The position numbers and the translations under genes were made by a program. Source: Chrysochromulina tobinii (taxonomy: Eukaryota). From it: a stretch of 42,032 nucleotides of DNA. Under the pieces are notes generated by a model. The model searched no databases, had not been told where the DNA came from, and saw only the letters and a list, made by a program, of their open reading frames with translations. Below are positions 3,117-28,357 of this stretch, in pieces. The stretch's first letter is position 1; the number at the start of each line of letters is the position of its first letter. The DNA lies in the NCBI GenBank assembly GCA_001275005.1, contig JWZX01003315.1:1-42032 (forward strand), in the 5' to 3' direction.

Positions 3117-5837
3117 TCATGGCTGCATCTCTGGCCACGCACCAGCCCAAGACGATGTTGGCGCGGCGGCGCAAAAGCCGCCAGTGCGCATGACTGGAGG
3201 TGAGGTGGCCTGAGGGGGTGGCACCGGCGGCAGCTTGCTGGGGGAAGACGCTAACTTCGGGGGGGAGGAGGGCGCAAGTTTGGCGGGCCTGCCGAAAAGC
3301 TCTGCGAAGAGATTGGCCGAACTTTTTTCCTCTGCCTCCTCCTGGTCCTCTTCGTCCTCCTCGTCCTCGTCCTCCTCGTCCTGGTACTCTTCCTCCTCTT
3401 CAGACTCGTCGTCCGTCTCGTACCCTGTCGGCTTCATGCCCACTTTGAAGCCCATGTCGATCGGCGTGACGCACCGTGGGCGAAGGACGGTCGGCGTCGT
3501 CGGAAGGCCGAGCAATGGACCGACCCTCGCCGGCAGCCCGCCATCTCCCCCGAGTCGAGGGGTCACCTGTCCCGGCCGAGCGGACGGGGGAAGCTCACGC
3601 GCGAGCTCATCGCGCAGCGCCTCCTTCTCGGCCTCCTTCGACGCCATCGCAAAAGCCGCGGCAAAGGCCGCGGCACCCGCCGGGACCTCATCCTCCTCAT
3701 CCTCTTCGTCGGATGCAACACCCCTAGCAGCCTCGGCCGCAGCCTTCTCGGCAACAGCCTTCTCGGCCTCAGCCTCCTCGGCCGCAGCCGTCTCGGCCGC
3801 CGCCTTCTCGGCCGCCACTGCCTCATCAACTGCTGCCACCGCGACCTCCTCAACTGGATAAACAATGGGAGCCGCCCGCGATGCGGCGCCGAGAGCCACG
3901 GAATTAACGGAACTGGGAACCACCAACACTGCCGCTTTCAGCGCGCGCTGTGAACGCTCCTTGAACCGGACGAGCTCCGACTGCCTCTTCTTCGCCGCAA
4001 ACGTGGCCCACTCGATCTGAATCACAAGGGCGGCGTGAGCCTCACGATGCTCGAGGCGCAGCGCGAGCTTCTGCCGAGCGAGCCCCTGCAAAGTGGACGC
4101 GAGTCGCGAGGCCGAGGTGACCATGCTGAGCCGCTGCCGCTTGAGCTCGGCTCCGCCCTTGCGTTCCTTGGCCGGCGTGATGCACAGAGCACCTCCCTTG
4201 ACGTCGCAGACGGCGGCGACGTGGTGGGGCAAGCCGCGCAGCACGAGCGCGTCGCCCACAAGGAGCTTCATAGCATTGAGTGCGCTTTGATTCTTGACGG
4301 GTACCGTTCGCTTGTTGACGGTCGTGCGCACGACCGTGACCGACTTTGGCAGCGCGAGCTGCCCGACAGTCATGTTATTCACACGCTTGTCGACCGTCGC
4401 AGTCATCTCCAACGCCCCTGTGCTCAGCACTCCCAAGGGAGAGAGAGGGAGAGCTGGCTTGCGCTTCTTCGCCTCCGGCGCCGCACCGAGGTACCGGTTG
4501 ATGCTCGCCGTGTGCGCTTTGCTCGTGGCCGCCTGCGTGGTGTAGCGCAAGCTCAGGCCCGGATGCGAAGTCGCCCACGCGCGCTGCGCCGCCAGGCTCT
4601 CAATCGCATCCTCTGCGGCCGTAGGCTCGAAGCATGCTTTGGTGCAGATTGGCTCGTTGTGTACAGCTGCGAGCAATGCAGCCATCAGCCGCCGCGAGCG
4701 CAGCTTGGCCGCCCGCTGCGTGGCTCGGTGTGCCTCTAGCATCGGCTTCGTCTCGCGGCGCTGCAGCTGGCCACGCCGCACGCACTGCAGTCGGCGTGCA
4801 GCATCATGAATACGCCGCTTGGCCCGTATGCTTTCCATCTTGTGACGCACGACGGGAACAAGAGCCTTCTTGAGAGTTTCGGCCGCGCAGATGAGGGCTT
4901 GGCGCTCCCGTTGGATCTCTTTCGTGATCTTGTCGCGATCGTGCCGCGGAGCGAGCACGAGCTTCTTCGACTTTTCCACCGCCACGGCCGCAAGCTGGTA
5001 TGGCAGGCCTTTGAGGACAAGCTCGTCACCCATCTCCACCTTGGTCGAGGGCAGCGTGCCCACGTTGGTTTTATTGCTCTTGGGACGGCGCACGGCTACG
5101 AGCGTCACGTTGCGTGAGAGCTGCAGCGCCGAGACCGTCGAATGGTCGTGAGCCGCGTCGACTTGCACCACAAGCTCCACCGGCTTCTCATGATAGAGTA
5201 GCTCCGCGGGGGATCTGTTCCAGCCAAATGTCTTGTTTACGCGAATCGCGTACGACGCGGCGGCGAGCCCACGTGCCCTAGGATCCAGCATGCGCAAGAG
5301 GAGCTTGTTGGCCCCGGCCGATACATCCGCCTTGAGAATTGCGTCGCCAACGACTTTCTTGAATGATCCTTCGGACGAGGTAGCTCCTCCAGCACCCTTC
5401 TTGAATGATTCGGCCTCCGTCGGCTTCGATGTCGGCGGCCTTCGCGGCGAAGGCGCCTTTCCTTTTGGCGCCTTTGCTGGCGTGCTTTTGGCCTGCTGCG
5501 ATCCACCCTGCGCAGCCGTGGTTCCACTCGTCGTCGGCGCCTCCCCTTTTCCAGCATTCGCTCCCGTCGGCCGTGCTGGTGCGGCTTCCTCCGTCGGCTT
5601 CGATGTCGGCGGCCTTCGCGGCGAAGGCGCCTTTGCCTTTGGCGCCTTTGCTGGCGAGCTTTTGGCCTGCGATCCACCCTGCGCAGCGGTGCCACTCAGC
5701 GCCTTTCTCCCTGGTGACGCTCGGCCCACCTCATCCTTCTTTGATGGCGTTTGAGGCTTTGCGGGCGACTTGAATCGACTGGGAGCTTTAGCAGGTGAGG
5801 CATTCTGCTCCTTATGCGGCTTTTGTGCCGGCGGCAT
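3117..5837 (-). CDS. About 906-aa protein with Pro/Lys/Ser-rich N-terminus, two TrkA-C (RCK_C)-like modules, IQ-like motifs and acidic tail
   Basis: Likely start MPPAQK at 5837; two similar modules ...TVSALQLSRNVTLVAVRR...GDELVLKGLPYQL and ...TVGQLALPKSVTVV...GDALVLRGLPHHV; AARRLQCVRRGQLQRR. Confidence 0.65.
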   Translation of the reverse strand: MPPAQKPHKEQNASPAKAPSRFKSPAKPQTPSKKDEVGRASPGRKALSGTAAQGGSQAKSSPAKAPKAKAPSPRRPPTSKPTEEAAPARPTGANAGKGEAPTTSGTTAAQGGSQQAKSTPAKAPKGKAPSPRRPPTSKPTEAESFKKGAGGATSSEGSFKKVVGDAILKADVSAGANKLLLRMLDPRARGLAAASYAIRVNKTFGWNRSPAELLYHEKPVELVVQVDAAHDHSTVSALQLSRNVTLVAVRRPKSNKTNVGTLPSTKVEMGDELVLKGLPYQLAAVAVEKSKKLVLAPRHDRDKITKEIQRERQALICAAETLKKALVPVVRHKMESIRAKRRIHDAARRLQCVRRGQLQRRETKPMLEAHRATQRAAKLRSRRLMAALLAAVHNEPICTKACFEPTAAEDAIESLAAQRAWATSHPGLSLRYTTQAATSKAHTASINRYLGAAPEAKKRKPALPLSPLGVLSTGALEMTATVDKRVNNMTVGQLALPKSVTVVRTTVNKRTVPVKNQSALNAMKLLVGDALVLRGLPHHVAAVCDVKGGALCITPAKERKGGAELKRQRLSMVTSASRLASTLQGLARQKLALRLEHREAHAALVIQIEWATFAAKKRQSELVRFKERSQRALKAAVLVVPSSVNSVALGAASRAAPIVYPVEEVAVAAVDEAVAAEKAAAETAAAEEAEAEKAVAEKAAAEAARGVASDEEDEEDEVPAGAAAFAAAFAMASKEAEKEALRDELARELPPSARPGQVTPRLGGDGGLPARVGPLLGLPTTPTVLRPRCVTPIDMGFKVGMKPTGYETDDESEEEEEYQDEEDEDEEDEEDQEEAEEKSSANLFAELFGRPAKLAPSSPPKLASSPSKLPPVPPPQATSPPVMRTGGFCAAAPTSSWAGAWPEMQP
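5411..5690 (-). repeat. Imperfect internal duplication (about 105 bp, two copies) encoding TAAQGGS(Q)QAKS.PAKAPK.KAPSPRRPPTSKPTE
   Basis: Copies at about 5411-5519 and 5585-5690, visible in DNA and protein. Confidence 0.85.
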
Positions 5838-6049
5838 GGTCGCGTCTGGATTGGACGGTCGTCGCACTGCCCCTCCAGTAGCGCGTGCAACGCCGCCCCT
5901 TTCACTTTTGGAAAGCCGAGCACGAGGCTGGCTGCTCAGCACAACGAGTTTTGTAAAACTGAGGGCCATATCCACGTTAGATGACCGGGTGACCCAAGCA
6001 ACCTGGCTTATTACCAGGCCGTTACTCGACACTTTGAGTTCATGAAAAA

Positions 6050-8065
6050 ATGCCCGTGACGGCGCCTGCGATGGCGACGACGACGCCGACGGCCACGGCC
6101 ACGGAGACTCACAACTTCGACGTGGTAGTGATAGGAGCAGGCTTTGTGGGCGTCTCAGTCGGCGCCGGCCTCGCAAGCCACGCAGGGGCATGCCGCGACA
6201 ACGACGGCCTGGACCACAGCCGCGTGCAAATCATCGAGCAGGGCCCAGAGTGCGGGGCATTCTGGCTCGGCGGGCACGAGGCGTTGTCGCTGCACAGTCC
6301 GCACCACCGCCTGCCGCACGACGGTGGGCTAGCGTACGACTACCCGATGTTCAAGACTAAGCACGAGGTGCGTGACTACATGAACCGGTATGCCCAGAAC
6401 AAGGGACTCGCACAATGCATGTCCTTTGGCGAGACGGTGCTGCGCATAAGCCACGAGCCCGAAGTCGACAAGGACCGGCCGTGGCGCGTCGCTACTGACA
6501 AGCGCGAACTCCGAGCGCGGCGCGTCGTCGTGGCCACGGGGCTCAACCGGCAGCCCCATATTCCCCACATCCCAGGCAGCGAGGAGCGTGCCGCACACGG
6601 CGCGCGCGCCTTGCGGCATTCGTGGAGCGTGTCGAGCTGCGACGAGTACAAAGGCGAGCGCGTGCTGCTCGTGGGGAGCGGCAACTCCGCGGCCGAACTC
6701 GCCGTGGCGCTGCACCATTCGGGCGCCAAGTCGATCGACATTCTGGTGGACGGGCCGCGCCACTTTGTGAGACGCAGCACGATGGGGCAGATCTTTCGTC
6801 TCTTTCCGTACTTGAGCCTGTCGACGGAGAGCATGGTGCACGATCTGCACCGGTGCACATTTGGCGAGCACACGGCGGATGCCAAGGTGGTCACCGCATG
6901 GGAGCGCTTCCAGGAGGGGCAAGATGAGTTCATAAGGCTTCTTTCCGTCGATCTCGGCCCCTTCGGTATCCAGCGGCCACCGAGCTGGCGGCACGCCGAG
7001 CAGCAGAGCGTCGCTCCTCGCATCCCCGTGTACGACGTGGACCAGCAGCGGTTGCCGCGCTCTGCCGGAGAGGGCGGCATCGTCGGCGGATCCGCAGCAG
7101 TTGGCTACGGCGTCATCGACCTCATTATGAGCGGTGCTGTCGGCATCAAGCGAGGACGCATCCAGCGCTTCACGAGCACCGGCGTCGTCATCGAGGAGGG
7201 GGCCTCGCGTCACGTGACAGCGCGGGCGGGAGCCACCAAAAGTTTGACAGCGGAGGCTGCAACGATGAAGGCGGCGACGGCGGAGGCTGCGACGGCGGAG
7301 GCTGCGACGGCGGAGGCTGCGACGGCGGAGGCTGCGACGACGGCCCCGCCGGGAGGGACGCACCACGCCTACGACGCAGTCATTCTCGCGACCGGCTTTC
7401 GCCACCGCATGGCCGACTTTCTGTGCGCTAAGGACGGGTTGCTTCACACGGCCGCCTCCTTTGGTGCCGCGGACGACGCCGAGGGTGCTCCGATCATCGA
7501 CAGCTGCTCGCGCTCGCGCGTGATCGACTCCATCTACTTTGTGGGCATGGACCAATTCAGGTCGACGGCCTCTCTCGATTGGCCTCCCTGATGACCTCCC
7601 TGATGACCTCTGATTGCCCCCTCTGATTGCCCCCCCCGCTTCAGGTCGACTCTCTCGATTGGCCTCCCTGATGACCTCCTTGATGACCTCTGATTGCCCC
7701 CTCTGATTGCCCCCCCCCGCTTCAGGTCGACTCTCTCGATTGGGCCCGTGCTCGGGTATCGTGGTTACGACGTCGGCGCGGCGATCGCGACCGATTTGTA
7801 CGGTCCGCCCACGAACCCGCTGCGTTTCCCCTCCCTACCGGCCGACGAGCAAGAAGGGAGCAACCCGATCCTGACGCCGAAGCACGCGCTCAAGGTCCTT
7901 GCGGCTGGGGTACTTGTGGGGATAGCTGGCACCCTCGTGATGGGGGCGCTCAAGCGGAAGCCGCGGCCGACAGCTCTGTCAGCCGCCCGAGGCCGCACGG
8001 TCCTCGAGAGCAGGCTAGCCCGCTTCAGCACCGAAGAGCGGCCTCTGACGAAGCCGAGGCCGTAG
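6050..8065 (+). CDS. Class B flavin-containing monooxygenase (FMO/YUCCA-like) with C-terminal membrane anchor; exons 6050-7560 and 7726-8065 (616 aa)
   Basis: FAD motif VIGAGFVG, VVATG, NADPH motif LVGSGNSA, ILATGF; splicing 7561-7725 joins DQFR-STLSIGPVLG in frame; hydrophobic ALKVLAAGVLVGIAGTLVMGAL followed by KRKPR. Confidence 0.85.
7561..7725 (+). other. Spliceosomal intron (165 bp) made of two tandem GT-AG units, 7561-7644 and 7645-7725
   Basis: GT...AG ends, in-frame stop at 7589-7591, removal restores the frame; each unit starts with a copy of the downstream exon start and ends ttcag. Confidence 0.85.
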
Positions 8066-9643: not shown

Positions 9644-11854
<2,211 letters not shown>

Positions 11855-12501: not shown

Positions 12502-15500
12502 TTACGTCGGAGATTGCTCGACCTCGCGCTCGACTTCGTCAACTTCTTCATCGCTCGCGCCGGCCTCGATAAGGAGACGCATGCAATTCAGATGGCCGCG
12601 CAACGAGGCCAGCATGAGAGCCGTGTGGCCGCATGCATCGCGCGCGTCGAGCTCGACATCCTCGGTTCCGAGCAACACGCGCACGATGTCTAGATAGCCC
12701 TCGAAGCTCGCGATATGCAGCGCGTTCTGGTTGCGCCCGTCGCACACACCCACCTTGGCGAGTAGCGATCGGAGGCAATCAGCGGCAATCAGTGGACCAT
12801 TGGAGGCAATCAGAGACCATCAGAGACCATCAGAGACCATCAGAGGCAATCAGAGGTCATCAGAGGCCATCAGAGACCATCAGAGGCAATCAGAGACCAT
12901 CAGAGACCATCCGAGGACAATCAGTGGACCATCCTAAGCCTACCCGGGCGCCGCGCCACACAAGCGCCTGGACGGTCGCAAAGTGGCCCTGCTGGCAAGC
13001 GTGCAGCATGGCCCAGTCCTGCTTGCTCTGGCTGGAACAGCGCCAGATGGGTTGCATGCCACGCACACGCACGCGCTCGGACCCGGGCACGGGATCCTCG
13101 ACGGTACTCGGCCTGTGCACGACCACGTGCGAGAACTGCATCGAGACGACATCAGACGGGTTAGGGTGAGGGTTACCATAGGGTGAGGGTCGAGGCTACC
13201 TGCATCGAGACGACCTCGACGTAGGCGCGCAGGTCGAGTAAGATCGAGGGCAATCAAGGGCAATCAAGGGCAATCAAGGGCGATCAAGAGCAATCACGTT
13301 ACATCAATTATGGGCATTCAACGGAGATCGCACCTGCATCGAGACGACCTCCAGGTAGGCGCGCATGTCGAGGGCGTACGCGTACCATGTGCGCCAGCAC
13401 CGATGGAGCTGCCGGCTAAGTAGGTACCCGACGCCCTGCAAGAACAGCCTCGTCTTGCGGCGACTCAAGCTCCAATAGGCGATCCAGGAGAGCCATGCGC
13501 GTGCGAGATGCCGTCGGCCTATCAGGTGGATCAGCACGCGAGTCATACTGCCGAGCGACTTCCGAAGCTCCATGGCGGTCATGGTGGCGTGCCGCCAGTT
13601 ACCAAAGGCATGCGCGGCGCGCCGCATCGCTAAAAAGGTGACGACCTTGCTCACCTAATGAGGGAGGTCATCAGAGGTCATCAGTGGCCATCAGTAGCAA
13701 TCATTCATCAATTCGAGGGCGACCTCGCGCACCGTCCGCATCGACGCCTTGAGCGCCGACGCGGACTCGACCCAAGCGTTCCAGCCCTTGTGGAGCGGAC
13801 GATGACGGAAGTGGCTCATGCTACTCTGGATGGCTTTGAGCTTGAGCGTGCGCATCTCGTGGTACGCGATCCAAGCTGCGCAGCCACGCGCGAGGTGGCG
13901 GCTCGACAGCTGCCGGATGACGCGCGTCATCAGCGAGCGCAAGCGCTCACTTGCTCGCTTCGTCACGCACAGCGCCTTCCAGCTGCCGAACGCGCGCGCG
14001 CCATGCCGGTTCAAAAAGGAGCCCACGCCCATGCGGACGAGTTGCACCTGATGAGGGAGGTCATCAGAGGTCATCAGGGGCAATCCGCGGCAATCAATCA
14101 TCATCGCGCCCAAATCGCGCCCAGGCGGACGAGTTGCACCATGTGCTCGCGTCCCGAGATCAGATCCACCCAATTGACGAACCCCCTCGCCATATGGAGG
14201 CTCGTCAAGTGCATCAGGCTACGCGTCAACGACGCCCGCAACGACGCGCGCGCCGCGGCGCGCCGTTGGACGTGTGAACGCCAGCTGTGAAACGCCTTGG
14301 ACTGGCCGTGATGGAGTGTGAAGCGCAAGCCTTGGCGCATGAGCGCCGAGAAGGTGCGCGCATGGCCGCCGTACTGCGAGCTCTTGCCCGCCGCCTCGGC
14401 CCAGGAATTCCATCCCTTACCCAGATGCAGGCTGCGCAGCAGCGCGACGGCTCGCGTGACGTGGCGCACGTTGGCCTGACGAGCGTCGACGAAGGCCACC
14501 CAGCCCGCGACGGCACGTGCCTCGCGCTGTCTCCTCAGGACGCGCGCCGTGCGGCCGATGAAGGTGAGCAACTGAAGCTGCCTCGAGCATGCCTCGGCCC
14601 ACGTGCGCAGGGCGCGTGAGAGGCCCCGATGACGCTGGCTGCCCACGACACGTTGGAGTGAGTTGCCCACTTCGCTCTTTCGCCATTCGAACTCGATCCA
14701 GAGGGCCTTCCACACATTGAAGCCGCGCGCGAGGAGGTGGTCGGAGAAGACTCGAACGGCGTCCGTGAATAGAGCCGCGCCGCGCCGGCGCGCCAAGCGC
14801 ACCTTCGTTGCATGCAAGAGGGAGGCAATCAGCATGCAATGGGGAGGCACTCAGCATGCAATGAGGGAGGCACTCAGCATGCAATGAGGGAGGCACTCAG
14901 CATGCAATGAGGGAGGCACTCAGCATGCAATGAGCGCACCTTCGTTGCATGCGCCCACGACGCGAAGCTGCGAGAGAGCGAGTGAGAGGTGAACAAGGCG
15001 ATGCCCTTGCCGAGCAACTCGAGCGCCTCGGCGCGTGTCGCAACCAGCTCAGCCCACGCGTTCCAGCTGCGAGCCATCTGGCGGTGGACGAGATATGCGA
15101 GCATGCGCCGTAGCGACGCGAGCAGTGCTCCCTGCTCCTCGACGCGCTCATGCCACGCATGCCAGCCAAGAGCCATGAGCCGATCGGCCATGCGCCCAAT
15201 CGCGCGACGCGTGGCGATGAATTGGGCGTCGGAGGCGTAGTGGCGTTCGGCCCACGTCGACCAAGCGCGAGCGAGTGCGCTGGAGAGCAAGTGTGCGAGG
15301 GCTCTGCCGACGCGCGCACGCCCCGCCCCGCTGAGTGTGGAGGCCTCCATCCACGTGTTCCACGCGCACGAGAGGGTGCGTGCGCTCAGATGGCTGATCC
15401 CGTGCCTCATTACGTCAGCTGCGTGAGCGTGCGAACGCCAGGTATCGGCCCACGTGTGGTACCCACGTGTCAGGCCGCGCTTGGTGAAGCGGATGAGAAT

Positions 15501-21515: not shown

Positions 21516-22904
21516 TCAGTCGACTGATGCCCACCGTACGTCGTTCGTGGGGTGGGGTCGAGGCGGCGCATGTAGCTCTACTGAAGGAGGCAGTGCTGTC
21601 GCTCCGCTCTGATCGAAATCGATCAAAAGGCTGCCCTCGTCTACTGAAGGGGGGGGCAGTGCTGCCTCGCTGCTCTCGTCGAAATCGATCAAGAGGCTGC
21701 CCTCGATCTGTTGAAGCAGCTGCCTGCCCTCGAGCCGCCTCCTCGCCTCATGCACACTCAGCACGCCATCCACTGCGATCTCTTCAATGACCTCTGCCGC
21801 CGCAGGAGCATCCGAAGCGGATGATGCCGCCGCCTCCGTCTCTTTATCGGAGGCGGTCGTGCGCAAAGCCGCCTTCGCAGTCGCGATGACGAACTCTCGT
21901 CGTCCTAGCATCGTCACGTTCAATGCTGTAAGCGCGGCCTCGCCCACTGCCGTAATGCGACGTAATCAGTGGCGATCAGTCGCAATCAGTCGCAATCAGA
22001 CGCAATCAGACGCAATCAGACGCAATCAGTGGCAATCACCTGCCGTGCATGCGGCGTGCGAGCACTGCCCCGCCTCGTCGCCCCACTTGTGGCGCACCGC
22101 CGCCTCGACCACCGCGCCGCTCGTCTTACCGATCTCGACCGCGGAATGTTCGAGCTCCTGCCCAATCGTACAGATGGCGGAGATCGAAGCACCGCCGATC
22201 ACCTTAAGTGCCGCGACGGTCGGGGTATCCGGCTGGTTCGTAGCAAGATGCTGAGCTGCTGCCGTGCCGATGGCGCCGGCGACCGCAGCGACGCCCGAGC
22301 CCACCATGCCCGTGAAGCGCAGGGCGGCGTTGGCGACGGTCCGGGTCGTGTTGACTACCTGTATCACCTCGGGAGCCACGAAGGCCTCCCTCTCATCTGG
22401 CTGCACGTGGGTTCGGATCTCGGACAGAGCACACACGAGCCCGTCGGTGATGACGGCGGCGCCGCTTTTGATGCACCGAGCCGCCGCTTGGCCGCCAATC
22501 TGGATCGACATTGCCGCCTCCTCTGCCACCGCTGCCGCAAACAAGCCACCCTCATCGACATCGTTGGAGAGCTCTGACGGCGGAGGCAGACCCAGCATCA
22601 TCGCAAGCCGTTCGCGCGCAGGAAAATCAGAGTGCTCAAAGCGCAGCAATGTGATACCGCCGCCTTGCATGGAGCAGCCCAGCTCAATGCAAGGGACGGT
22701 CCAGAAGATGGCACAACCGTCATCGTCGAGGCTGCGGTCCCACACATCGACGGCTTGGTTGTCAGGTCCATCTGGTGATGGCACGTGTACCAGCCGTCTG
22801 CCTTTCACGATCAGCGATCCCGTGCATTGGACGAAGTGGGTGCCGTCGCCGAGGAGCGCTACGCGAGCGACCGCCTCAAGAATGTGGAATTCGGACGGCA
22901 CCAT
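21516..22904 (-). CDS. Senescence-domain (spartin/ERD7-like) protein; exons 22904-22040 and 21946-21516 (431 aa)
   Basis: Small-residue amphipathic helices and VRHKWGDEAGQ...AVGEAALTALNV, typical of the spartin C-terminal senescence domain; phase-1 intron removal restores the frame. Confidence 0.75.
21947..22039 (-). other. Intron (93 bp) of CTGATTGCGT/CTGATTGCGA 10-bp repeats
   Basis: GTGATT...ACGGCAG; in-frame stop at 22026; ends in a copy of the upstream exon end (CGCAT..ACGGCAG). Confidence 0.85.
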
Positions 22905-25558: not shown

Positions 25559-28357
25559 CTACACCGTAACACGATGAGAGACAGACGAGGGCCGCAACGC
25601 CACCTGCTCCTCAAACACGTAGCACGGCCTTCGGGTGAGAGGCACTCTCGGAGTATGGTGTGAAAGCCGCGGCGCGTGGTGCCCTGGGGAGCCCAGCTTG
25701 ATCCTTGGTCTCCGGCCTATCGGCGGGCCTATCGGCGGGCCCACCGGCGGGCCCACCGGCGAGTGGAGCGGGTGCCCCATCTTAGGGGCCTGCCCCATCG
25801 TCCACACCTCTGCGTCCTCTTGTGGGGTGGGCGCTGCCGGCGTGGATGGCGTCCCTGATTCCATGCTGATTGCATTCCTCATCAGGTGGGCTCCCTCACG
25901 GCGCCGCCGCACGATCGAAAGCAGATCTTCTCGCTCTTGGAGCCAGCTGCTATTGGCCTTCTGCCACAGCTGCCATCTGGCTTCGAGCTCCGTGTGCGCC
26001 CTGTTGCCTTGCCCCAATCTGCTCACCAATCTGCTAGGATGCGACTCGGCGCCCGGTATGGCGCTCGACTTGGCGCTCTGCTCGGCGCTCTTCTCGGCGA
26101 TTCTCGAGAACGCCGAGTTCGCGAACGGGCCGGCGGGCGTGCGAGCTTGTGGATCAGGCCACCGACGCACCGAGATCGGGTCGGAACCAAACAAGGTGAA
26201 GCCATCGGAACAAGGTGGAGCGCGATTCCATCGTCTCGCTAGCGGAGACCCATCGGCTCCAAATAAGACGTCATTATCGTCGCCGAGGGCATGCGACTCC
26301 AAAGACTGCCGTGGCCGCACTCGACCCACTCCTCTGATTGCATGCTGATTGGGTTCCTCATCAGGTGGGCTCCCTGGCCGCACTCGACCCACTCCCGGCT
26401 GCCTCGCTGATGGGCGCGCGGACGACGCGCGTACTGGCTTGAACGGCACGTCGAGCCTCGTGGACAACACCATCTGTGCCACTGTCTGTGCCACTGTCTG
26501 TGCCACTGTTTGTGCCACTGTCATCTCTTTGCCGACCTCTTTCACTGTGTTTGCCAATGCCCTCTCTTCGCCGACCCCTTCAACTGTGTGTGCCACTGTC
26601 TTCGCTTCGCCGACCTCTTCGCGGGGAATGCGATTTCTCCGACTGCGCGGCGTCAGCTTCTCGTCAACCTTCGCGACGACCAAGTCGGGCGGGCTGATGA
26701 ACACGTCATCGCCTCCGGCAGACTCAGGTGCGGGCGTGACGGCTACTCCCTCAATGCGCGGCCACTCCCTCAAAGCCTTCTTGAGCTTCGCTACCACGCC
26801 CGCCTCCTTGAGCTTTGCTGCCGCTCGTGCTGACGACGTGACCCGCGCCTCGATGGCCGCCTTCACCACTCTGGCAACGGCTTCCTCCTTGGCACGTCTG
26901 GCTGCAGCTAGCTCTTCCTGCTTGGCTGCCTCTTCCTTCTCGATCTTGTCCGCAGAGCCCTTTTGCGCCTTTGCCCACGCCGCTTCTTGCGCCACGCGTG
27001 AAGCGTGCAGTTCCTTGAGTGCCTTTGCAATCGCTGCTCGCTTCGTAATCAAGCGATTGCGATTGCGTTGCGCTGCCTTTGCCGCCGCCGCCCGTTGCTC
27101 CTTTTCGGGTAAGAAGGAGGTGGCGGCCAAGAAGGAGAAGAAGGAGAAGCCTTCTCCTTCTCCTTCTTTGCTCGGCTTTCTTGCCCGCCTCCGCTCAGCC
27201 TCCACAGCTTCCTGCCTCCGCTCAGCCTCCACAGCTGCCTGCCTCCGCTCAGCCTTCACAGCTGCCTGCCTCCGCTCAGCCTCCACAGCTGCCTGCCTCC
27301 GCTCAGCCTCCACAGCTGCCTGCCTCCGCTCAGCCTTCACAGCTGCCTGCCTCCGCTCAGCCTCCACAGCTCCCTCAATCATCTCCGCCATCTCCGCCGC
27401 GGCCGCCCGTTGCTCCTTTTCGAACAACGAAAAGGAGACGCCTTTTTCTTGTTTGCTCGGCTTTCTTGCCCGCCTCTGCTCAGCCTCCACAGCTTCCTCA
27501 GTCTTCTCCGCCATCTCCACTGTCGTCACCGCCATCGCCACCGCCTTCTTCGCCACCGGCGCCGCCGTCGCGATCCGCCGGCGGCGCCCCAATCGCCGTC
27601 CCCCTGACTGCGGCTGCCCCCCTGACTGCGGCTGTCCCCCTGTCCCCCTGTCCCCCTGTCCCCCTGTCCCCAATCGCTGTCCCCCTTGGATGACTGCGGC
27701 TGCCTTGCCAGAGCGCATCTGCTCGAGGATGGCTCCGCGCGCATAGCGCAGCGATGCGAGAGCCGTCAATGTGACGCTGATCGAGGCGACGCGCTTGCCA
27801 TGACGATCGAGGACGTCAATGGCCTGGTTTGTCGGCTCGTGCTCACGCTTCAGCAGGTCCTTGAGGTTCACGTGCGCCAGACCGAGCTCCTGCTCATCGT
27901 CGATCGCCGCCGCCATGACGGCGTCGACGGGAGTGCTCAGCCCGGGGGCTGTTACATGTATCACCTCGTCTGGGTGCTCGGCGTTCAGGCCGGCCTTGAG
28001 CACAAAGTACACGTCCGAGTCTTGCTCCTCGACCGAATTGAGCGCCTCGCACATAGGCTCCCACAGCGGCGTCCCCGGCGAAAGGGGCAGTAGCTCGTGC
28101 ACGTCGAGCAACACCGGGTCGAGCGAGGCGGGGCGAAGCCGGCTTGAGCGGAGCCGTACCTCGAGCTCGTGGGCTCGACCAAACGGGTCGATGGATATCC
28201 ACACGTGCTGCTTCGTCTGCTTCAGCTCTCGCAGCAACGGCGGCTCAAGCTGCAGCGTGTGCACCGAAAGCGTGATCGGCCCGGTCGGTGTTCCTTCCCT
28301 GTCGCCCAACTGTTTGGAAGCCTGCTCGGGCTCGTGCTCTGGAGTCAAGCCAACCAT
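25559..28357 (-). CDS. 932-aa protein with N-terminal C2 domain (RPGRIP1 C-terminal-type), IQ-like motif, coiled coil and disordered tail
   Basis: ITLSVHTLQL...VWISID...VYFVL...ELGLAHVNLKDLL...IDVLD...VASISVTLTALASL C2 strand pattern; AAAVIQ; AERRQAAVE repeats. Confidence 0.6.
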   Translation of the reverse strand: MVGLTPEHEPEQASKQLGDREGTPTGPITLSVHTLQLEPPLLRELKQTKQHVWISIDPFGRAHELEVRLRSSRLRPASLDPVLLDVHELLPLSPGTPLWEPMCEALNSVEEQDSDVYFVLKAGLNAEHPDEVIHVTAPGLSTPVDAVMAAAIDDEQELGLAHVNLKDLLKREHEPTNQAIDVLDRHGKRVASISVTLTALASLRYARGAILEQMRSGKAAAVIQGGQRLGTGGQGDRGTGGQPQSGGQPQSGGRRLGRRRRIATAAPVAKKAVAMAVTTVEMAEKTEEAVEAEQRRARKPSKQEKGVSFSLFEKEQRAAAAEMAEMIEGAVEAERRQAAVKAERRQAAVEAERRQAAVEAERRQAAVKAERRQAAVEAERRQEAVEAERRRARKPSKEGEGEGFSFFSFLAATSFLPEKEQRAAAAKAAQRNRNRLITKRAAIAKALKELHASRVAQEAAWAKAQKGSADKIEKEEAAKQEELAAARRAKEEAVARVVKAAIEARVTSSARAAAKLKEAGVVAKLKKALREWPRIEGVAVTPAPESAGGDDVFISPPDLVVAKVDEKLTPRSRRNRIPREEVGEAKTVAHTVEGVGEERALANTVKEVGKEMTVAQTVAQTVAQTVAQMVLSTRLDVPFKPVRASSARPSARQPGVGRVRPGSPPDEEPNQHAIRGVGRVRPRQSLESHALGDDNDVLFGADGSPLARRWNRAPPCSDGFTLFGSDPISVRRWPDPQARTPAGPFANSAFSRIAEKSAEQSAKSSAIPGAESHPSRLVSRLGQGNRAHTELEARWQLWQKANSSWLQEREDLLSIVRRRREGAHLMRNAISMESGTPSTPAAPTPQEDAEVWTMGQAPKMGHPLHSPVGPPVGPPIGPPIGRRPRIKLGSPGHHAPRLSHHTPRVPLTRRPCYVFEEQVALRPSSVSHRVTV
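27190..27370 (-). repeat. 27-bp coding minisatellite (about 6 copies, AERRQAAV[E/K])
   Basis: ccgctcagcctYcacagctgcctgcct tandem array. Confidence 0.9.

Follow-up and report, generated by a model that had tools for sequence, protein, structure and literature searches.

Spliceosomal introns can be created when a piece of exon with an internal AGGT is duplicated in tandem, a route that needs no foreign filler, and recursive splicing at zero-length-exon "ratchet points" takes place in very long introns of Drosophila and vertebrates. In Daphnia pulex, new introns have been ascribed to the repair of staggered double-strand breaks, which leaves direct repeats of exon ends; 43 of 90 gains are described as parallel, six of them at one site, with breaks of mixed types (Li et al., 2014, PMC4202315). 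Introners are short repeated elements that make introns, one splice site being carried by the element and the other coming from the target duplication, for which a length of 3-9 bp, constant within each family, is given (Gozashti et al., 2022, PMC9860276; further sources are Roy et al., bioRxiv 10.1101/2020.10.14.339549, and Gozashti et al., 2025, PMC12130899). For haptophytes, the table of the 2025 article gives 2-5 bp (E. huxleyi, Pavlovales), and supplementary file 7 of the same article lists no family for Chrysochromulina tobinii (PMC12130899). Fungal complex intervening sequences, or stwintrons, are removed by one or two consecutive excisions, and duplication of a donor element has been proposed as their origin (Ag et al., 2020, PMC7138796). 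This study concerns a compound intron of C. tobinii in a contig of 42,032 nucleotides (nt) (JWZX01003315.1, assembly GCA_001275005.1, read on the forward strand from its first position), the whole of which is referred to below as the window; among the systems named, the break-repair introns of Daphnia are its nearest match in logic.

The intron interrupts one minus-strand gene, extending from about 18959 to 12505, in which the long 5' exon encodes EF-hand domains and the last exon ankyrin repeats; W-rich repeats are encoded as well. Its parts are the following.

13334..13654, minus strand: upstream exon of the EF-hand, W-rich repeat and ankyrin gene, 107 codons
13334..13372, minus strand: copy A, the final 39 nt of the upstream exon, coding for LDMRAYLEVVSMQ and followed by GT
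13136..13333, minus strand: whole compound intron, 198 nt, GT..AG, phase 0, placed from an RNA joint and the common frame of the flanking open reading frames (ORFs)
13239..13333, minus strand: filler 1, 95 nt including its own GT, with start GTGCGATCTCC, TTGATTGCCC-type 10-mers and end GATCTTA
13200..13238, minus strand: copy B, 39 nt with 3 mismatches to the exon end, its AG (13200) abutting GT (13199/13198)
13151..13199, minus strand: filler 2, 49 nt, starting with GTAGCC and containing the telomere-type hexamers AACCCT CACCCT AACCC as well as CTAAC and CTGAT
13136..13150, minus strand: copy C, 15 nt without a mismatch, or 18 nt if one is allowed, the final acceptor, followed by exon TTCTCG
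12944..13135, minus strand: downstream exon, 64 codons

Filler 1 and copy B form unit 1 (134 nt), and filler 2 and copy C form unit 2 (64 nt), giving 198 nt in total. The exon reads ...CTCGACATGCGCGCCTACCTGGAGGTCGTCTCGATGCAG at its end, which is copy A (13372..13334), and at the internal junction the sequence ..GATGCAG/GTAGCC (13200/13199) has the same ending as the upstream exon, ..GATGCAG. With the GT counted, the A/B repeat extends over 41 nt with 3 mismatches (repeat family D2, 93%); divergence amounts to 3/39 between A and B and to 0/15 both between A and C and between B and C. When copy B was used as a query with at most 3 mismatches, copies A and B were the only matches in the 42 kb, and two matches occurred in 0 of 100 shuffles. 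The preliminary description of this DNA, according to which the exon end was recopied over 39 nt with 3 mismatches and then once more at the acceptor, was right in its coordinates and counts, and its statement that the fillers are unrelated, so that this is no simple tandem duplication, is borne out by a blastn-short comparison, in which fillers 1 and 2 showed no similarity beyond GT, as well as by their different lengths and kinds. Two of the three A/B differences lie 2 nt apart (13352-13354 and 13218-13220, minus strand), where CTGGAG has become GTCGAG; the latter is the exact reverse complement of the opening six bases of the copies, CTCGAC, so that a 6-bp stem is possible in copy B and impossible in copy A. 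If translated, the three changes would read M to L and L to V.

The architecture of this intron is confirmed and is genuinely unusual. We read it, with moderate confidence, as a spliceosomal intron in which two GT...AG units stand end to end and which arose by two insertions with long target duplications at one CAG and that can be removed in one step or in two. Of the two parts of this reading, the two-hit history is plausible and stepwise splicing through the internal AG/GT is likely, both being still unproven. Since the fillers are of different kinds and both lie at the same CAG, two events of insertion or filler capture make the simplest history.

Removal of 198 nt (3x66) keeps the frame: the ORFs 13307-13654 and 12893-13195 have a common frame across the intron, in-frame stops lie inside it, and the protein across it reads ...LEVVSMQ / FSHVVVH.... 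Introns were placed manually, on the evidence of ORF frames, of uninterrupted Pfam matches and of RNA joints; the models of a home-made gene finder, which contained many implausible long introns in GC-rich DNA, were left unused. A word-index search for longer proteins returned no orthologues in other species, and a full HMMER search returned the same ORF alone (P0001, 97%) plus distant repeat proteins with identity of at most 44%. The branch-point-like motif YTGAT has a density of 41.7 per kb in 7 introns of the window versus 1.3 per kb in 9.9 kb of their exons, and AG has one of 19 per kb in these introns versus 60 per kb in the exons. The compound intron holds four AG dinucleotides (G at 13215, 13200, 13196 and 13136), none of them in filler 1. 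The candidate branch adenines of CTAAC and CTGAT lie 25 and 16 nt ahead of the final AG, and one-step removal would use these two motifs. Removal of unit 1 would rejoin CAG to GTAGCC and so recreate a donor, which would make the internal AG/GT a zero-length-exon recursive splice site. The same mRNA results from three routes, namely removal of the whole, of unit 1 and then unit 2, or of unit 2 and then unit 1.

RNA and DNA evidence was drawn from the contigs of 8 of 16 listed public runs. In a contig of the freshwater metatranscriptome X4 (151 nt, depth 3.7), 13135 is joined to 13334, an exact removal of 198 nt with GT..AG ends, seen as CT..AC on the plus strand. A contig from the polyA metatranscriptome X11 (218 nt, depth 2.66) runs through 13125-13197 and continues with 13332-13476, so that the 134 nt of unit 1 are gone, while unit 2 and the unspliced final acceptor are retained; the gap fits two GT..AG registers, with donor 13333 and acceptor 13200 or with donor 13348 and acceptor 13215. 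The identical stretches at the joints measure 15 and 20 nt, the latter at the X11 joint, and are shorter than the 31-letter index word of the run search and the word length of 31 with which Logan contigs were presumably assembled, so that an assembly mis-join is unlikely. These data show removal of the whole intron and, in addition, a form that fits removal of unit 1 first. To judge from the contiguity of copy B and filler 2, the partly spliced RNA would read ...VVSMQVASTLTLW-stop. Among the matches listed, X1 and X2 gave unspliced pieces only, such as 13120-13260 in X2, and X3 and X5 covered exon 1 and the array alone; X13 and X14 behaved as DNA at about 11x, with both units covered. The preliminary description had also envisaged inclusion of the 39-nt copy as a micro-exon, which was seen in none of the RNA contigs examined; as filler 1 has no AG, there is no acceptor ahead of copy B, and the micro-exon reading was rejected.

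One metagenome scan with the upstream exon as query yielded five contigs from relatives. Two of them match the window with 99.98% identity along 5.3 kb, and the other three with about 95-99% in the pieces that align, array indels being counted. Both units are present in all five. Over the 1.7-5.3 kb compared, length differences are solely those of 10-mer and 23-mer array copy number, which varies among the five contigs. Within 371 aligned nt, variation is confined to the fillers, with 6 substitutions and an indel of 10 nt in filler 1 and 2 substitutions in filler 2; the exons and copies A, B and C are invariant. Neither a strain with one unit, such as the preliminary description had proposed to look for, nor the intron-free ancestral allele that serves as a criterion in Daphnia-type cases was found among the five metagenome loci or the two DNA-like runs.

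Filler 1 belongs to a family of elements with 10-mer arrays, its own array being detected by Tandem Repeats Finder (TRF) at 13243-13296. The sequence GTGCGATCTCC occurs exactly twice in the window, each time as the initial 11 nt of a repeat-flanked intron directly after CAG. The second occurrence opens a sister intron.

33220..33295, minus strand: sister single-unit intron, 76 nt, in a gene of the tubulin-tyrosine-ligase (TTL) family

Its element (33295..33249) has the ends GTGCGATCTCC and ATCTCA, and a 29-nt exon-end copy with 1 mismatch supplies the acceptor CAG. The 10-mers of filler 1 and of the sister are 86% alike, and their 3' ends are ATCTTA and ATCTCA, respectively. The Pfam TTL profile is matched over 8-246 up to 33296 and over 249-282 from 33219, resuming two residues into the next exon, and this continuity requires that the sister element and one duplication copy be removed exactly. 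The targets of the two family members are similar (TCGATGCAG and TCGATCAG, each followed by T). By eye, the element ends, GTGCGATCTCC and ..CGATCTTA or ..CCATCTCA, have a direct GATCT in common and form no terminal inverted repeat, unlike those of many introner families as described. In the DNA runs, the word depth of the filler 1 array is about 440-840 versus about 11 for the flanking DNA. Other intron arrays, with the 10-mers CTGATGGTCT / CTGATGACCT or a 23-mer, reach depths of about 1,500-39,000 (10^3 to 4x10^4) in the two DNA-like runs with flanks at about 11, which places such very abundant arrays at thousands of sites in the genome.

12764-12945, 13583-13764, 14038-14128 and 14857-14947: deep intron arrays

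In other collections, AGGTGCGATCTCCNTTGA was matched once among viruses and 38 times among prokaryotes; no match stood before TGAT arrays, and all were set aside as chance. The viral collection contained 0 matches to CTGATGACCTCCCTCATYAG.

Filler 2 is of another kind. It contains NACCCT hexamers (GACCCT CACCCT ... AACCCT CACCCT AACCC), is the sole match in the 42 kb to a 17-nt (AACCCT)n query with at most 2 mismatches (0 of 100 shuffles matched), and stands at single-copy depth. Haptophyte telomeres are reported to be of the TTAGGG type (PMC3622300; bioRxiv 10.1101/2022.10.25.513657). The G-rich strand of filler 2 is the plus strand, as though telomerase had extended a 3' end there or a break had taken up a piece of telomere.

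Repeat-flanked units of this sort were sought throughout the window, which as a sample is one stretch of 42 kb. Exact direct repeats of at least 12 nt with a spacing of 35-1500 nt (117 runs) served as input, tandem arrays were removed, and the rest were extended. This left 13 non-tandem units. The repeats on their two sides measure 15-41 nt (0-3 mismatches) and are spaced by 63-137 nt, and 38-117 nt of non-exon filler lie between the copies. Seven of the 13 are GT..AG intron units in ORF-bearing genes, namely 7561 and 7645 on the plus strand and 13333, 13199, 14139, 14939 and 33295 on the minus strand; of the other six, one is nested in an intron, one is coding, and four (11978, 26312, 28722 and 37759) have no assignment. 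A count of GT..AG "rotations" over all direct repeats was swamped by tandem arrays and was dropped. The other introns concerned are these.

7561..7725, plus strand: other stacked intron, 84- and 81-nt units about 97% alike, with three copies of TTCAG/GTCGAC..CTCTCGATTGG
14803..14939, minus strand: intron of the host gene, flanked by a 20-nt exact repeat with AG/GT
14048..14139, minus strand: intron of the host gene, 3' end ..CTGATGACCTCCCTCATCAG
13655..13732, minus strand: intron of the host gene, degenerate copy of the next exon's start (13/18, by eye)
12754..12943, minus strand: last intron of the host gene, no clear flanking repeat

The splice sites of these units come from different parts of the structure. 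GT is supplied by the filler and AG by the exon-end copy in units 13333, 13199 and 33295; AG is supplied by the filler and GT by the copy of the next exon's start in unit 14139 and in the degenerate 13732; both sites come from an AG/GT inside the repeat in units 14939 and 7561. The first 22 nt of intron 14048..14139 and the exon-end G before them make up a copy of the next exon's start (23 nt, 1 mismatch), and the two AG-carrying fillers, those of 13655..13732 and 14048..14139, are identical over the 27 nt of their 3' ends. The host gene has five introns with six units, of which four have repeats of at least 15 nt, one is degenerate and one has none.

The stack at 7561-7725 is a tandem duplicate of one unit, which gives a precedent for a further history of the compound intron, in which a single ancestral unit was duplicated in tandem and its fillers diverged later. 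We consider this highly improbable, since fillers of 95 and 49 nt that are dissimilar beyond GT would have to lie between copies that are still 92-100% alike.

The units outside regular introns show several variations. The nested unit 12932..12786 has a 15-nt exact repeat, ATGGTCCACTGATTG (12932..12918 and 12800..12786), around a 10-mer array, and begins 11 nt past the donor of intron 12943..12754. At 21606-21705 (minus strand), a 66-nt unit (39-nt filler plus a 27-34-nt repeat) lies in frame, so that EGSLLIDFD occurs twice; it appears to be an insertion of the same kind kept as coding sequence, and the last bases of its filler, CCCCCCCCTTCAG, resemble the 3' end of an intron. At 26312-26395 (plus strand), a 21-nt exact repeat surrounds a 42-nt filler (26333-26374) that is a near copy of an intron-end and exon-start junction 480 nt upstream (25856-25896, plus strand), including 11 nt of exon; a filler that contains a part of an exon points to copying from DNA or unspliced RNA, not from excised introns. 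A candidate 93-nt intron at 22039-21947 (minus strand), in a gene with a Senescence domain, starts with GTGATTGCC, contains seven GCGACTGATT-type 10-mers and ends in an imperfect exon-end copy (ACGGCAG, about 12/14 nt); Pfam gave its acceptor no support, and it was left uncounted.

A mechanism that would account for these structures can be outlined as follows. Throughout the window, 38-117 nt of mostly intron-like filler would have been inserted and 15-41 nt of the target duplicated, each event requiring a long-stagger cut (15 and 39 nt in the compound intron) or an upstream return after a template switch. A filler with an initial GT would be inserted, and the duplicated exon end (..CAG) would become the acceptor. 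An insertion into an exon would survive where the filler and no more than one full copy of the duplication can be spliced out together in some GT..AG register. As the duplication would recreate the target, a second hit at the same CAG would stack a second unit. Two orders may be considered. If unit 2 is the older, the family element was later inserted between CAG and GT, with duplication of 39 nt of exon; if unit 1 is the older, the telomere-type filler was later inserted after copy B, the last 15 nt of which were duplicated. Either order yields the present sequence, and the divergence of the copies does not discriminate between them. Recombination of two alleles with different insertions at a hot spot would also stack units. 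Duplications of such length and variability speak against a cut-and-paste transposase; possible mechanisms are target-primed reverse transcription, repair of long-stagger breaks and replicative template switching.

Several points weigh against two insertions and stepwise removal. None of 79 ORF and exon translations scanned in the window contains a reverse transcriptase, endonuclease or transposase domain; the filler 1 family has two members in the data reached, and filler 2 has no relatives in the window. With no single-unit strain at hand, the two events are neither orderable nor demonstrably separate, so that of the earlier proposal of two independent events at one CAG the simplest history stands, with a family element set beside telomere-type repeats, and the independence of the events is unproven. 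As regards splicing, each RNA form is one environmental contig of low depth (3.7 and 2.66). The base at 13163 in the X11 contig is absent from every DNA source, which assigns this contig to another strain, and an identical sequence would result if that strain had an allele lacking unit 1 or if reverse transcriptase had jumped over the 20-nt repeat. The geometry at the internal acceptor (13200) is poor, with the nearest YTGAT 54 nt upstream and the AG at 13215 in between.

The last of these points also speak for an alternative in which the intron is always removed in one step and X11 reflects a DNA allele (either the ancestral single-unit state or a deletion by A/B recombination), seen through unspliced RNA or carried-over DNA, or a reverse-transcriptase switch. 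It is further favored by the X2 contig, which is unspliced over the acceptor in a run labeled as RNA, by the direct repeats that flank the missing piece exactly, and by the stack at 7561-7725, where units were gained at the DNA level through repeats. Set against it are the complete absence of contigs lacking a unit among the five metagenome loci (divergence about 0-3%) and the two DNA-like runs, the polyA selection of the X11 library, the fall of the X11 joint on GT..AG in two registers, and the resemblance of the regenerated donor GTAGCC to the donor GTAGGC of intron 12943 in the same gene. We regard exclusive one-step removal as possible, though doubtful. The proposal that a recursive intermediate might be found in RNA thus has one polyA contig that fits it, for which an allele or a reverse-transcriptase artifact may still account.

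Both fillers may also have entered together, in a single complex repair (microhomology-mediated, polymerase-theta-like or break-induced) after a break at CAG/TTC, an error-prone process with template switches in which the exon end would have been copied several times. Filler 1 ends with GCCCTCGA-TCTTA before copy B, and GCCCTCGA precedes and overlaps copy A as well; filler 2 starts with GTAG-CCTCGACC, echoing the initial bases of the copies; however, these stutter matches of 7-8 nt go only weakly beyond chance. The change of CTGGAG to GTCGAG places two of the three A/B differences in a cluster like those of template switches, the filler of unit 26312-26395 was copied from a junction nearby, and the divergence values of the copies (A/B and A/C) are compatible with one age. 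On the other hand, filler 1 has defined ends in common with the single-unit sister intron, so that unit 1 looks like a standard one-unit product, and the other units of the window are single. A single repair therefore seems to us unlikely, and two insertions at the same CAG are preferred.

The position of both events exactly at a CAG junction had led to the suggestion that existing splice junctions are preferred targets. An insertion machinery with such a preference, linked to the spliceosome or guided by junction sequence, would let introns attract introns, and the two family targets given above resemble the 3' ends of introns in this genome (..CATCAG). The survey of the window does not sustain this suggestion: in only one of 13 cases was a junction given a second unit that is unrelated to the first, the nested unit 12932..12786 sits within an intron and off the junction, further units lie in coding or unassigned DNA, and reverse splicing would leave no duplication. 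Moreover, a target ending in CAG is required for a spliceable product, so that selection alone explains the position of CAG, and since a long duplication recreates its target, a site preference or a break hot spot predicts re-insertion without any part played by splicing. We therefore hold a junction-seeking machinery to be improbable.

Compared with the described systems, two insertions at one CAG place the compound intron closest to the break-repair introns of Daphnia, with which it has in common the copy of the adjacent exon end at the far end of the intron (here 39 and 15 nt) and the non-homologous inserts at one site. It differs in the length of the repeats, reported as 4-12 bp there and 15-41 nt here, in the parallel gains, which in Daphnia are in different alleles and here are stacked on one molecule in all five contigs, and in one filler that comes from a repeated family. 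Filler 1 and its sister resemble introners in that they carry a 5' site and co-opt a 3' site, as in a described Chrysochromulina family; unlike in the introner families described, the duplications are long and variable (15, 20, 23, 29 and 39-41 nt), presence/absence polymorphism was not seen at any of the five loci over up to 5.3 kb, and filler 2 belongs to no family. With the stwintrons described in fungi the locus has in common a compound intron with the option, likely here, of excision in one or two reactions. It differs from them, since in a stwintron the internal intron splits a signal of the external one, whereas the units here abut, each with complete signals, and the duplicated piece here is 39 nt of exon plus GT. 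As at ratchet points, there is an internal AG/GT at which the first step would regenerate a 5' splice site, and one RNA contig fits this; in contrast to them, the intron measures 198 nt, the site would be a by-product of insertion, and removal in one step gives the same mRNA. Introns 14939 and 7561 use an AG/GT within the repeat, as in duplication of an AGGT-containing segment, whereas the 95- and 49-nt fillers are unrelated to the exon. Among the papers searched, we found no description of haptophyte exon-end duplications of 15-41 nt or of such stacks. A process unlike that of introners, in which long staggered cuts or template switches, fillers including telomerase-type repeats, and repeated hits would give rise to recursive compound introns, is put forward only tentatively.

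Elsewhere in the window, an uninterrupted ORF of 736 codons (9647-11854, minus strand) encodes an esterase D-like domain joined to a zinc alcohol dehydrogenase; in it, the two enzymes of the glutathione-dependent pathway of formaldehyde detoxification are probably fused. Within the long ORF 3120-6230 (minus strand), which has a TrkA_C domain, about 100 nt are duplicated with a spacing of 171-174 nt (5414-5690, plus-strand coordinates). Four in-frame tandem repeats of 42 nt (32805-32972, minus strand) encode SAHPSAGSPESAHY-type peptide repeats in the C-terminal part of the TTL-family gene, and the plastid-import gene Tic22 is also found in the window.

The origin of new spliceosomal introns is still argued from rare fresh cases, and the footprints preserved here are unusually legible. 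One site appears to record two successive events, and environmental RNA shows that the product is spliced. If such structures are found genome-wide, a major source of introns can escape introner surveys that rely on short fixed duplications and on similarity between whole introns, and a culturable alga would permit tests of site preference, of the duplicating enzyme and of recursive splicing.

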